This document shows positions 18,617 to 23,070 of a stretch of DNA of 64,000 nucleotides, in pieces (the stretch's first letter is position 1; each line of letters opens with the position of its first letter). Both the position numbers and the translations under genes were made by a program. The notes under the pieces were generated by a model that saw only the letters and a list, made by a program, of their open reading frames with translations, did not search any database and had not been told where the DNA came from. Source of the stretch: Escherichia coli (GTDB lineage Bacteria; Pseudomonadota; Gammaproteobacteria; Enterobacterales; Enterobacteriaceae); assembly GCF_003334815.1 (NCBI RefSeq), contig NZ_QOWO01000004.1; one strand, written 5' to 3'.

Positions 18617-19603
18617 GTGACCAGGACCAACCTCATCACCGGTTTTCTCGGCAGCGGGAAAACCACGTCGATTCTTCATCTGTTAGCCCATAAAGATCCC
18701 AACGAAAAATGGGCGGTACTGGTTAATGAATTTGGGGAAGTCGGAATTGATGGTGCTTTGCTCGCCGATAGCGGCGCATTGCTGAAAGAGATCCCCGGCG
18801 GCTGCATGTGCTGCGTTAATGGTTTACCCATGCAGGTAGGGTTGAATACCTTACTGCGTCAGGGAAAACCAGACCGCTTGTTGATAGAGCCGACCGGGCT
18901 GGGCCATCCGAAACAGATCCTCGATCTGTTAACCGCACCAGTCTATGAACCGTGGATAGATCTGCGCGCCACCTTGTGCATTCTCGATCCGCGCTTGCTG
19001 CTGGACGAAAAAAGCGCCAGCAATGAAAACTTCCGTGACCAGCTGGCTGCCGCAGACATCATTGTCGCCAATAAATCCGACCGTACGACGCCCGAAAGTG
19101 AGCAAGCGCTACAGCGTTGGTGGCAGCAAAATGGTGGCGATCGACAATTAATTCACAGTGAGCATGGGAAAGTTGACGGTCATCTTCTGGATTTGCCGCG
19201 TCGCAATTTAGCCGAGTTGCCCGCCAGCGCCGCGCATTCTCATCAGCATGTCGTGAAAAAAGGGTTAGCAGCGTTAAGCCTGCCAGAGCATCAACGCTGG
19301 CGTCGCAGTCTGAACAGCGGGCAAGGATATCAGGCCTGCGGCTGGATATTCGACGCTGATACGGTATTCGACACCATTGGCATTCTGGAATGGGCGCGAC
19401 TTGCACCGGTGGAACGCGTCAAAGGCGTGCTGCGTATTCCCGAAGGGCTGGTGCGAATCAACCGTCAGGGCGATGACCTGCACATTGAAACGCAAAACGT
19501 TGCGCCACCGGACAGCCGTATTGAGCTGATTTCCAGCAGCGAAGCTGACTGGAATGCCTTGCAGAGCGCGCTGTTGAAGCTTCGTTTAGCGACTACCGCG
19601 TAA
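18617..19603 (+). CDS. yeiR: COG0523-family zinc-binding GTPase YeiR
   Basis: 328-aa ORF with P-loop GFLGSGKTT and CxCC motif (GGCMCC); GTG start. Confidence 0.85.
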   Translation: MTRTNLITGFLGSGKTTSILHLLAHKDPNEKWAVLVNEFGEVGIDGALLADSGALLKEIPGGCMCCVNGLPMQVGLNTLLRQGKPDRLLIEPTGLGHPKQILDLLTAPVYEPWIDLRATLCILDPRLLLDEKSASNENFRDQLAAADIIVANKSDRTTPESEQALQRWWQQNGGDRQLIHSEHGKVDGHLLDLPRRNLAELPASAAHSHQHVVKKGLAALSLPEHQRWRRSLNSGQGYQACGWIFDADTVFDTIGILEWARLAPVERVKGVLRIPEGLVRINRQGDDLHIETQNVAPPDSRIELISSSEADWNALQSALLKLRLATTA

Positions 19604-19641
19604 GGTTGCCTGCGTTTTTCAGTAAGATAATTAGAGAAAAT

Positions 19642-20355
19642 ATGATTAAAAATTTGCCGCAAATAGTGTTGTTGAATATTGTCGGCCTCGCGCTGTTTCT
19701 TTCCTGGTATATCCCCGTTAATCATGGATTCTGGTTGCCGATTGATGCGGATATTTTTTATTTCTTTAATCAGAAACTGGTCGAAAGTAAGGCCTTTTTG
19801 TGGCTGGTTGCATTGACCAACAATCGCGCCTTCGACGGTTGTTCACTGCTGGCGATGGGTATGTTGATGCTGAGTTTCTGGCTGAAAGAAAACGCCCCTG
19901 GCAGACGACGTATCGTGATTATTGGTCTGGTCATGCTATTAACTGCAGTGGTATTAAACCAGCTGGGTCAGGCATTAATTCCTGTAAAACGGGCCAGCCC
20001 AACATTGACTTTTACCGATATTAACCGCGTCAGCGAACTGCTCTCTGTTCCCACGAAAGATGCCTCACGAGATAGCTTTCCCGGCGATCACGGCATGATG
20101 CTGCTTATTTTTTCGGCATTCATGTGGCGTTATTTCGGCAAAGTTGCAGGCCTTATCGCCCTTATTATTTTTGTGGTTTTTGCATTTCCCAGAGTAATGA
20201 TTGGCGCACACTGGTTTACTGACATCATTGTCGGTTCGATGACCGTGATATTGATCGGTTTGCCCTGGGTGTTGCTGACGCCATTAAGTGATCGATTAAT
20301 CACCTTTTTTGACAAATCACTACCAGGAAAAAACAAACATTTCCAAAACAAATAA
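19642..20355 (+). CDS. lpxT: Lipid A 1-diphosphate synthase (undecaprenyl-PP phosphotransferase, PAP2 family)
   Basis: 237-aa membrane ORF from ATG 19642 (MIKNLPQIVLL...); PAP2-type motifs. Confidence 0.85.
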   Translation: MIKNLPQIVLLNIVGLALFLSWYIPVNHGFWLPIDADIFYFFNQKLVESKAFLWLVALTNNRAFDGCSLLAMGMLMLSFWLKENAPGRRRIVIIGLVMLLTAVVLNQLGQALIPVKRASPTLTFTDINRVSELLSVPTKDASRDSFPGDHGMMLLIFSAFMWRYFGKVAGLIALIIFVVFAFPRVMIGAHWFTDIIVGSMTVILIGLPWVLLTPLSDRLITFFDKSLPGKNKHFQNK

Positions 20356-20766
20356 CTCACAGTAATTAACATCATCAGGGTTATTTTTATAGTGAGGATA
20401 ATCCTGATGATGCGCACCGTGCTTTCATCTATCGAACGCAAAAATCATTCTCTAAGTAAATGAATGGATTGCATGCGTTTCACTCAATTGTACTTTAATT
20501 GACCAACCCCGCTTATTAACTTTCTGTATCACTTTTTCTTATAAAAAATCATGTAAAACCGCTCGCCAAGACCGCACCAATCGGGTAATCTCGAACTCGT
20601 TTTGCCTCGGCGGTAGATTATCCTCACAGCATATAATTTTGTGCGTTAGTCCACAGATTTGGCCTTAAGGAATTGTTTCAACATGCCCAGGTAATTAGTC
20701 TCGTGTCGCTTGGCATTTTTTTATAACGATATTTGTCGTTAAGGACTTCAAGGGAAAACAAACAAC

Positions 20767-21333
20767 ATGGTCAAATCTCAACCGATTTTGAGATATATCT
20801 TGCGCGGGATTCCCGCGATTGCAGTAGCGGTTCTGCTTTCTGCATGTAGTGCAAATAACACCGCAAAGAATATGCATCCTGAGACACGTGCAGTGGGTAG
20901 TGAAACATCATCACTGCAAGCTTCTCAGGATGAATTTGAAAACCTGGTTCGTAATGTCGACGTAAAATCGCGAATTATGGATCAGTATGCTGACTGGAAA
21001 GGCGTACGTTATCGTCTGGGCGGCAGCACTAAAAAAGGTATCGATTGTTCTGGTTTCGTACAGCGTACATTCCGTGAGCAATTTGGCTTAGAACTTCCGC
21101 GTTCGACTTACGAACAGCAGGAAATGGGTAAATCTGTTTCCCGCAGTAATTTGCGTACGGGTGATTTAGTTCTGTTCCGTGCCGGTTCAACGGGACGCCA
21201 TGTCGGTATTTATATCGGCAACAATCAGTTTGTCCATGCTTCCACCAGCAGTGGTGTTATTATTTCCAGCATGAATGAACCGTACTGGAAGAAGCGTTAC
21301 AACGAAGCACGCCGGGTTCTCAGCCGCAGCTAA
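20767..21333 (+). CDS. mepS: Murein DD-endopeptidase / NlpC-P60 lipoprotein MepS (Spr)
   Basis: 188-aa ORF with lipobox LLSAC and NlpC/P60 catalytic Cys (GIDCSGFV). Confidence 0.95.
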
Positions 21334-21379
21334 TAAACCGTTTGGATGCAATCCCTTGGCTATCCTGACGAGTTAACTG

Positions 21380-21410
21380 AAAGCACTGCTTAGGCAGTGC
21401 TTTTTTGTTT
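21380..21410 (+). terminator. Rho-independent terminator after mepS
   Basis: AGCACTGC-ttag-GCAGTGCT hairpin followed by TTTTTTGTTTT. Confidence 0.65.
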
Positions 21411-21513
21411 TCATTCATCAGAGAAAATGATGTTTCCGCGTCTTGATCCAGGCTATAGTCCGGTCATTGTTATCTTTTAAATGTTGTCGTAATTTCAGGA
21501 AATTAACGGAATC

Positions 21514-23070
21514 ATGTTCATACGCGCTCCCAATTTTGGACGTAAGCTCCTGCTTACCTGCATTGTTGCAGGCGTAATGATTGCGATACTGGTGAGTTGC
21601 CTTCAGTTTTTAGTGGCCTGGCATAAGCACGAAGTCAAATACGACACACTGATTACCGACGTACAAAAGTATCTCGATACCTATTTTGCCGACCTGAAAT
21701 CCACTACTGACCGGCTCCAGCCGCTGACCTTAGATACCTGCCAGCAAGCTAACCCCGAACTGACCGCCCGCGCAGCGTTTAGCATGAATGTCCGAACGTT
21801 TGTGCTGGTGAAAGATAAAAAAACATTCTGTTCATCTGCGACCGGTGAGATGGACATTCCACTCAATGAATTGATTCCGGCGCTCGACATTAATAAAAAC
21901 GTCGATATGGCGATCTTACCCGGCACGCCGATGGTGCCGAACAAACCCGCAATCGTCATCTGGTATCGCAACCCTTTGCTGAAAAATAGCGGCGTCTTTG
22001 CCGCTCTGAATCTCAACCTGACGCCTTCACTCTTTTATAGTTCACGGCAGGAAGATTACGATGGCGTCGCCCTCATTATTGGCAATACTGCGCTATCTAC
22101 CTTTTCTTCACGTTTGATGAACGTTAACGAATTAACCGACATGCCAGTCCGTGAAACTAAAATTGCGGGCATTCCTCTGACCGTTCGGCTTTATGCAGAT
22201 GACTGGACATGGAACGATGTGTGGTACGCATTTTTACTGGGCGGCATGAGTGGAACTGTCGTTGGCCTGCTCTGCTATTACCTGATGAGCGTACGTATGC
22301 GCCCCGGCAGAGAAATCATGACCGCCATCAAGCGCGAACAATTTTACGTGGCGTATCAACCGGTGGTGGATACACAAGCTTTGCGAGTAACGGGCCTGGA
22401 AGTACTGCTACGCTGGCGGCATCCTGTCGCGGGAGAAATTCCCCCGGATGCCTTCATTAACTTTGCCGAATCGCAAAAGATGATTGTGCCGCTGACTCAG
22501 CACCTGTTTGAGTTAATTGCCCGCGATGCCGCAGAATTAGAAAAAGTGCTGCCGGTAGGCGTCAAATTTGGTATTAACATTGCGCCGGACCATCTGCACA
22601 GCGAAAGCTTTAAAGCAGATATCCAGAAACTGCTCACTTCCCTGCCCGCACACCATTTCCAGATTGTGCTGGAAATTACCGAGCGCGATATGTTGAAAGA
22701 GCAAGAAGCCACACAACTCTTCGCCTGGCTGCACTCGGTCGGCGTAGAAATTGCTATTGATGACTTCGGCACCGGGCACAGCGCGCTTATCTATCTTGAG
22801 CGTTTTACGCTCGATTATCTGAAAATTGACCGTGGATTTATCAACGCCATCGGTACGGAAACGATCACTTCCCCCGTACTTGACGCGGTGCTGACGCTGG
22901 CGAAACGCCTCAATATGCTGACGGTTGCTGAAGGGGTCGAAACGCCGGAACAGGCGCGATGGCTAAGCGAACGCGGCGTTAATTTCATGCAAGGCTACTG
23001 GATTAGCCGCCCGTTACCGCTGGACGATTTTGTTCGCTGGCTAAAGAAACCGTATACGCCGCAGTGGTAA
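21514..23070 (+). CDS. pdeN: CSS-motif/EAL-domain c-di-GMP phosphodiesterase PdeN (Rtn)
   Basis: 518-aa ORF with N-terminal TM and periplasmic domain, and C-terminal EAL domain (EVLLRW, QGYWISRP). Confidence 0.9.
   Translation: MFIRAPNFGRKLLLTCIVAGVMIAILVSCLQFLVAWHKHEVKYDTLITDVQKYLDTYFADLKSTTDRLQPLTLDTCQQANPELTARAAFSMNVRTFVLVKDKKTFCSSATGEMDIPLNELIPALDINKNVDMAILPGTPMVPNKPAIVIWYRNPLLKNSGVFAALNLNLTPSLFYSSRQEDYDGVALIIGNTALSTFSSRLMNVNELTDMPVRETKIAGIPLTVRLYADDWTWNDVWYAFLLGGMSGTVVGLLCYYLMSVRMRPGREIMTAIKREQFYVAYQPVVDTQALRVTGLEVLLRWRHPVAGEIPPDAFINFAESQKMIVPLTQHLFELIARDAAELEKVLPVGVKFGINIAPDHLHSESFKADIQKLLTSLPAHHFQIVLEITERDMLKEQEATQLFAWLHSVGVEIAIDDFGTGHSALIYLERFTLDYLKIDRGFINAIGTETITSPVLDAVLTLAKRLNMLTVAEGVETPEQARWLSERGVNFMQGYWISRPLPLDDFVRWLKKPYTPQW

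Follow-up and report, generated by a model that had tools for sequence, protein, structure and literature searches.

The DNA analysed here is a 64,000-nucleotide stretch of an Escherichia coli genome (contig NZ_QOWO01000004.1; hereafter the window), in which each position equals the corresponding position of strain MG1655 (NC_000913.3) minus 2,249,212. It is E. coli K-12 DNA with the gene order yeiR-lpxT-mepS-pdeN, and the spacer between lpxT and mepS measures approximately 410–411 bp (20356–20766). No feature is annotated within this spacer in the curated MG1655 RefSeq record or in the E. coli records listed, which were sampled across 5,426 PGAP-annotated genomes. A 501-bp query surrounding the hairpin described below was found as a single copy in each of 5,426 complete E. 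coli genomes and was 100% identical to K-12 derivatives. The features to which we refer are the following, given as window positions:

19642–20355, + strand: lpxT coding sequence with the stop codon TAA at 20353–20355 (b2174 in the MG1655 RefSeq record, 2268854–2269567)
20366–20393, + strand: sigma-70-like motif TTAACA-16 nt-TATAGT, found in a consensus scan (10/12), overlapping the hairpin and without experimental support
20370–20389, + strand: 5' arm of the hairpin, beginning 14 nt after the lpxT stop codon
20390–20392, + strand: hairpin loop UAG of the RNA fold
20393–20412, + strand: 3' arm of the hairpin, holding the Shine-Dalgarno (SD)-like GAGGA (20394–20398) and both ATG codons (20407–20412)
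20407–20463, + strand: mini-ORF MMRTVLSSIERKNHSLSK of 18 codons, with ATG-ATG at 20407/20410 and TGA at 20461–20463, judged incidental
20415, + strand: mapped RNA 3' end (Term-seq, Adams et al. 2021, class 'orphan')
20422–20439, + strand: degenerate Pho-box-like relic CTTTCAT-CTAT-CGAACGC, inside the mini-ORF and intact in many other genera
20708, + strand: mepS transcription start site (TSS), with a flanking sequence identical to window 20658–20708, 59 nt before the ATG at 20767
20767–21333: mepS coding sequence, ATG at 20767

The initial annotation of this DNA described an inverted repeat that started at 20378 and enclosed a 15-nt loop. The repeat is indeed present, but it begins at 20370, so that 8 nt of its 5' arm had been cut off, and the loop is shorter than described. 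At the DNA level, the two arms (20370–20384 and 20398–20412) comprise 15 nt each with 1 mismatch and are separated by 13 nt. The RNA of the + strand folds into a 20-bp stem, in which 20370–20389 pairs with 20393–20412, with 4 G.U pairs and the 3-nt loop UAG. The observation that the 3' arm overlaps a GAGGA-spaced ATG-ATG was accurate, with GAGGA at 20394–20398 and the two ATGs at 20407 and 20410. Folded alone, the hairpin reached -23.7 kcal/mol on the + strand versus -14.2 kcal/mol for its reverse complement, and the 115-nt region around it had a z-score of -4.3 relative to dinucleotide shuffles, none of which (0/200) folded as well. In a ranking of every 46-nt fold in the 64-kb window, the hairpin came 4th on the + strand and was weaker than -18 kcal/mol on the - strand. 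The stem contains only 5 G-C pairs out of 20 and is followed by CGCACCGU, with 1 U in 8 bases, and our terminator scan did not call the lpxT hairpin as an intrinsic terminator. The sequence downstream of the stem is richer in C than in G (C/G of 26/15 over the next 100 nt; 27 C versus 15 G in the 108 nt of 20413–20520).

The window-wide fold scan also picked up, on both strands of window ~54027–54500, near-identical strong hairpins that recur every ~112 nt (54055, 54167, 54281, 54393 and others). The series has the appearance of structured units repeated in tandem.

Within E. coli, a 54-nt hairpin query matched in 5296 of the 5426 genomes, always at ≥95% identity. The conservation of the spacer as a whole is a mosaic: it is very high from ~20520 to mepS, moderate in the region of the 5' arm and poor in the stretch that carries the mini-ORF. 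Two strains differ by larger changes. In E. coli 20A24 (L086, NZ_CP147044.1), an IS1A copy stands in place of the 5' arm of the hairpin, and in E. coli MIN12 the spacer match breaks beyond window ~20561 and falls at two places in the genome. The sequences of 20A24 and MIN12 suggest that insertions within the spacer are tolerated. Given that IS1 lies inside the 5' arm in one natural isolate, the hairpin is non-essential and appears dispensable at least there.

Published transcript maps of E. coli place an RNA 3' end directly behind this structure. The Term-seq data of Adams et al. (2021 eLife 10:e62438, supplementary file 1) contain a + strand 3' end at MG1655 position 2269627 with a score of 1323.37, which is window position 20415 and thus 3 nt past the stem; the flanking sequence of this entry is identical to window 20365–20425. 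At 60 nt beyond the lpxT stop codon, the entry exceeded the 50-nt limit of the class 'primary' and was for this reason classified as 'orphan' (Adams et al. 2021). The peak is weak and was seen in one of three growth conditions (Adams et al. 2021), which we take to be LB at OD 0.4, given that 2269627 is found on the same sheet as 2269975, an entry that carries the LB OD 0.4 Rho-score columns (supplementary file 3). For lpxT, Kim et al. (2012 PLoS Genet 8:e1002867, supplementary file 2) recorded a start site with 2 reads, 28 nt ahead of the ATG; lpxT is thus weakly expressed, which fits with the modest Term-seq peak. Supplementary file 2 of Adams et al. (2021) lists no Rho-termination region at 22694xx–22699xx, in a list whose regions are under-called according to its authors and for a gene that is weakly expressed. 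A reported action of MicA on lpxT concerns translation and has no relation to the 3' hairpin.

We next consider whether the hairpin might mark the beginning of a transcript rather than an end. The motif TTAACA-16-TATAGT, which runs into the hairpin, could act as a promoter that starts a transcript near 20400 and yields a small RNA or else a mepS transcript from upstream that has the mini-ORF close to its 5' end. This motif is the sole sigma-70-like match in 20200–20900, and its ATTAAC part is kept in many genera; however, shuffles of the region contained 1.7 such matches on average, and the -10 element is not kept in the Escherichia locus L002 (CATAGA) or in E. albertii (L003), with L004 having CATAAT. 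Moreover, Kim et al. (2012) report no TSS between the start sites of lpxT and spr (mepS), no intrinsic terminator follows within the next ~180 nt, and no Rfam family covers the locus, as a search at E≤10 of 19000–22000 returned chance matches to eukaryotic snoRNAs and miRNAs alone. For these reasons, the small RNA that the initial annotation had considered is not supported. The sole mapped 3' end at the hairpin belongs to RNA coming from upstream. Neither this spacer nor these genes are among the entries of the Cappable-seq and SMRT-Cappable-seq supplements. Taken together, we regard transcription from within the hairpin as very unlikely.

The known start of mepS lies elsewhere in the spacer. 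Kim et al. (2012, supplementary file 2) mapped the mepS (spr) TSS to U00096.2 position 2267942, corresponding to window 20708, with 188 reads and a 59-nt leader, indicating that mepS has a promoter of its own, ~300 nt downstream of the hairpin, from which it is expressed. The spacer had thus rightly been said to carry the mepS promoter, even though the hairpin itself is situated ~300 nt upstream of that TSS. The same distance means that the mini-ORF is not on that mepS leader and speaks against the leader peptide that had been suggested earlier.

Could the 18-codon frame nonetheless be a genuine gene, for a small protein or for a leader peptide with a regulatory role, whose translation is gated by the hairpin? 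The frame had previously been given 17 codons and an end at 20452; it has 17 codons when counted from the second ATG and 18 from the first, and the former end falls 11 nt short. GAGGA is located 8 nt before the first ATG, and the frame is open in six E. coli strains, yet the differences between these strains are mostly amino acid replacements, for example TV to LL (EC958) or E to A (SE11 and others). On RNA coming from lpxT, the SD and both ATGs are paired within the -23.7 kcal/mol stem, and most transcripts stop at the mapped 3' end, 9 nt inside the ORF. Beyond E. coli, neither the frame nor its length nor GAGGA is kept in other Escherichia: three other species have MMCDFVLVH (9 aa), MMRGVADTHRLK (12 aa) and, following a 1-nt insertion, the frameshifted MMRAVAFIHQTQKSFPK (17 aa), and the counterparts of GAGGA in these species are GAAGG, CGAAG and GCGGA. 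ATGATG is equally found in Citrobacter, followed by unrelated sequence, while the other genera have no mini-ORF and, in most of them, the homologous DNA is a Pho-box-like repeat.

The body of the ORF is also far more polymorphic than the hairpin. A 54-nt ORF-body query matched in 2013/5426 E. coli genomes by megablast, which needs an exact word of 28 nt; compared with the 5,296 genomes that matched the hairpin, this number places the ORF body among the fastest-changing parts of the spacer. The frame is unannotated in the MG1655 RefSeq record and in the E. coli records listed, its 23-aa GTG-extended peptide had no match in NCBIfam, and it has no entry in one supplement of the Ribo-RET small-ORF study by Stringer et al. 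(2021). Five ORFs with ≥20 aa overlap this spacer, and ATGATG simply complements the CATCAT at the base of the stem, so that the mini-ORF is no more than what chance would provide. It is most likely an accident of the hairpin, and a functional peptide seems highly improbable to us. The general leader-peptide proposal of the initial annotation is likewise not supported, given that the ribosome-binding site and the start codons are locked in the hairpin, that conservation of the frame stops at E. coli and that most transcripts end 9 nt into it.

To compare the locus across the family, we used a set of 80 Enterobacteriaceae loci, obtained by a MepS search with one genome per species. All 80 related loci have lpxT directly upstream, a spacer of near-constant length (~415 bp) and then mepS. 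At 77 of 81 loci, the lpxT stop codon was followed, at a distance of no more than a few tens of nt, by a hairpin of -10 kcal/mol or below. In a 66-sequence alignment, all of the tested base pairs (15/15) had changes on both sides, and the covariation score was 0.286 versus 0.140 ± 0.010 for shuffles, none of which reached it (0/500); slid partner columns scored at most 0.098. A core, AUCAGGGAUCG-UUUU-CGAUCCCUGAU, is common to most genera, while the outer stem pairs differ by clade, with CAUCAU/AUGAUG in Escherichia and Citrobacter, GCUAUC/GAUAGC in some Enterobacter and UACCUUCAGCG/CGUUGAAGGUA in Salmonella arizonae. The lower 10 bp of the 5' arm (CATCATCAGG) are the same in three out of four Escherichia sequences and in many Citrobacter, with one substitution in L002. 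In Kluyvera, Atlantibacter, Siccibacter and Cedecea, the stem sequences are unrelated. The inverted repeat is therefore a real and conserved RNA hairpin, beyond what chance would produce.

The bases that follow the stem differ between these groups as well. The 8 nt behind the stem contained ≥5 T at 21/81 loci, most of which belong to more distant genera; loci of Kluyvera, Klebsiella, Atlantibacter and Cedecea are among the 21, and in Siccibacter and Buttiauxella the predicted stem takes up part of the T-run. In Escherichia, Citrobacter and most Enterobacter, the same 8 nt contain 0–3 T. Judged by their sequence, the hairpins with T-runs in distant genera are textbook intrinsic terminators. The simplest history would be that of an ancestral lpxT terminator whose U-tract eroded in the Escherichia/Citrobacter/Enterobacter group, with the stem being kept and lengthened; as part of our best explanation, the upper stem would have been remodelled in Escherichia into an A/U- and G.U-rich extension. 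The first of the possibilities raised in the initial annotation, an lpxT 3' structure, has thus held up: the hairpin lies 14 nt past the stop codon, covaries family-wide, shares its place with the terminators of distant genera and precedes a Term-seq end by 3 nt.

Upstream of the stem, the motif AATTAAC (window 20363–20369) is kept in most genera (L005–L078) amid an otherwise variable 3' UTR. It is situated 0–10 nt 5' of the lpxT hairpin and abuts the stem directly in Escherichia and some Citrobacter.

A palindrome of this kind might also act as DNA, as the binding site of a protein such as a regulator of mepS. Indeed, the core ATCAGGGATCG-TTTT-CGATCCCTGAT is near invariant in many genera, including the loop, and outside Escherichia there is no excess of G.U over A.C combinations (28 G.U versus 31 A.C cells), so that covariation alone cannot fix the strand. 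However, distant genera have wholly different stems at the same place, followed by T-runs, which argues for selection on pairing and not on sequence. Moreover, every pair covaries, the RNA 3' end follows directly after the stem, and the palindrome lies ~300 nt from the mepS TSS. The 3–4 G.U pairs in Escherichia make the fold specific to the + strand, an assignment that the T-runs in distant genera and the mapped + strand RNA 3' end equally support. We therefore give the binding-site explanation a very slim chance. Apart from the palindromic form itself, nothing suggests that the inverted repeat arose by chance or belongs to a dispersed REP/BIME-like family, two options which the shuffle z-score of -4.3, the family-wide covariation and the median of one place per E. 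coli genome with none on plasmids leave with next to no probability, the single-copy hairpin not being REP-like.

Starting from the demonstrated structure, conservation, covariation and mapped 3' end, we propose, with a probability of roughly 0.8, that the hairpin forms the 3'-terminal stem-loop of lpxT (yeiR-lpxT) mRNA and is a U-less descendant of an intrinsic terminator. In E. coli K-12, this stem-loop would set the steady-state 3' end of the lpxT mRNA, 3 nt beyond the stem. In the route that we favour, RNA polymerase would be released further downstream, probably by Rho acting on the untranslated C-rich/G-poor spacer, and 3'-5' exonucleases would then trim the RNA back until they are halted by the 20-bp stem. 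Alternatively, the hairpin might itself drive weak termination without a U-tract. We consider downstream release followed by trimming somewhat more likely than inefficient termination at the hairpin, with both the action of Rho and the block of exonucleases being what we infer. By either route, the lpxT mRNA would be stabilised and mepS would probably be insulated from lpxT transcription. The 3' arm, together with the rapidly evolving spacer that follows, would have given rise to GAGGA, ATGATG and the 18-codon frame as mere by-products.

This proposal is in line with previous work by Dar & Sorek (2018), who showed that Rho-terminated transcripts of E. coli end precisely just past stable U-less stem-loops, with a mild enrichment of C over G downstream and evidence for the stems blocking PNPase and RNase II. 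The lpxT element resembles this class in that a stable stem-loop lies directly 5' of a precise steady-state end, without a U-rich tail and with more C than G downstream, and in being located soon after a stop codon in an untranslated spacer. It differs in that its stem is unusually long (20 bp), A/U-rich and contains 4 G.U pairs, and in that the site is not in the Rho-region list of Adams et al. (2021). By its sequence and its 3' end, it fits the class. With canonical intrinsic terminators it shares the gene-end position, a stable stem 14 nt past the lpxT stop codon and a 3' end just after the stem, and the canonical features, namely a G+C-rich stem and a T-run, are found at the same position in Kluyvera, Klebsiella, Atlantibacter, Cedecea and others. 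Unlike in canonical terminators, only 1 U is found among the 8 bases after the E. coli stem, where ~5 or more are expected, and 5/20 pairs are G-C. The lpxT hairpin is an unnamed new member of a well-known kind and holds nothing surprising to a specialist.

Several other known types of element were considered. In fourU-type RNA thermometers, of which Salmonella agsA is an example, a run of U pairs with the SD. The lpxT hairpin is similar in that UUUUU (20384–20388) pairs with GAGGA by A-U and G.U pairs in the upper stem. We nevertheless rejected this option, as the 15-bp helix below also buries the start codons and as -23.7 kcal/mol is far too stable for a melting switch; in addition, the ORF behind it lacks conservation, and the gene that comes next is related neither to heat shock nor to virulence. 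A role as RNase III substrate is unsupported, the mapped 3' end lying outside an intact stem. The same holds for translational coupling to the lpxT stop codon, the stem starting 14 nt past the stop, which by our estimate is about the edge of a terminating ribosome.

The mepS-proximal part of the spacer has a different character. The ~250 bp before mepS (window 20520–20766) are >90% conserved across the 80 species-level loci, far above the rest of the spacer. A structure search of this conserved upstream region found covariation in only 2 of 23 predicted pairs; with almost no covariation, the conservation looks like that of a DNA-level promoter/operator and not of an RNA element. It contains a CRP-like palindrome, TGTGCGTTAGTCCACA (window 20640–20655), which keeps its GTGCG and CACA ends unchanged throughout 25 genus-level loci and is centred 60.5 nt upstream of the mepS TSS at 20708, a class-I-like position. 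A putative -35 element TTGTTT (20673–20678) and -10 element TAGTCT (20696–20701) of mepS are found in conserved blocks. Further downstream, the mepS leader carries an invariant hairpin, TAACGATATTTGTCGTTA (20724–20741), with an apical pair that varies between UA, UG and CG.

Other Term-seq ends map near and within mepS. Those at window 20761 and 20763 (MG1655 2269973 / 2269975) lie 4–6 nt before the mepS ATG and were seen in two growth conditions, with a Rho score of 0.63 that was called 'No'. Combined with the TSS at 20708, these ends would delimit a mepS 5'-leader fragment of ~54–56 nt. Within the mepS coding sequence, a 24-nt inverted repeat (window 20872–20935) is 83% complementary, and a strong internal end at 20924 (MG1655 2270136), called not Rho-dependent, is located at this repeat, with scores of 10,108 and 12,902 in two conditions.

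Lastly, we examined the DNA that spells the mini-ORF in E. coli. The sequence CTGTCAT-N4-CTGTCAT was found within 3 mismatches at 49/81 loci versus 4/81 shuffled spacers, nearly always 339–347 nt upstream of the mepS ATG. It is perfect at 8 loci, among them those of Citrobacter, Phytobacter and Leclercia, and the intact Pho-box-like repeat, as in L008, L010, L012, L020, L026, L033, L034 and L041, lies ~341–347 nt before the mepS ATG. Other Enterobacter, Kosakonia and Kluyvera loci have 1–3 mismatches to it, and a conserved TAAAAT/AAATGAAT element follows ~12 nt after the repeat. Escherichia sequences have 5–7 mismatches anywhere in the spacer and Salmonella arizonae has 4, and both therefore appear to have lost the repeat. 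The DNA spelling the E. coli mini-ORF may thus be the decayed remnant of a PhoB-type promoter, a tentative reading to which we assign somewhat less than even odds. Among the papers searched, none linked mepS to PhoB or the Pho regulon. If the reading is true, the lpxT terminator hairpin would in those genera be followed by a phosphate-starvation promoter directed toward mepS, or toward an RNA in the conserved spacer.

For the annotation of E. coli, our proposal means that the 'orphan' Term-seq end at MG1655 2269627 can be assigned to lpxT, and it cautions against annotating the overlapping 18-codon frame as a small-protein gene. Across the family, the locus would represent a clean case of an intrinsic terminator that loses its U-tract in the course of evolution while its stem is retained and even lengthened. 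This fits with the idea that hairpins at gene ends may be kept for the protection of RNA 3' ends besides their role in termination.
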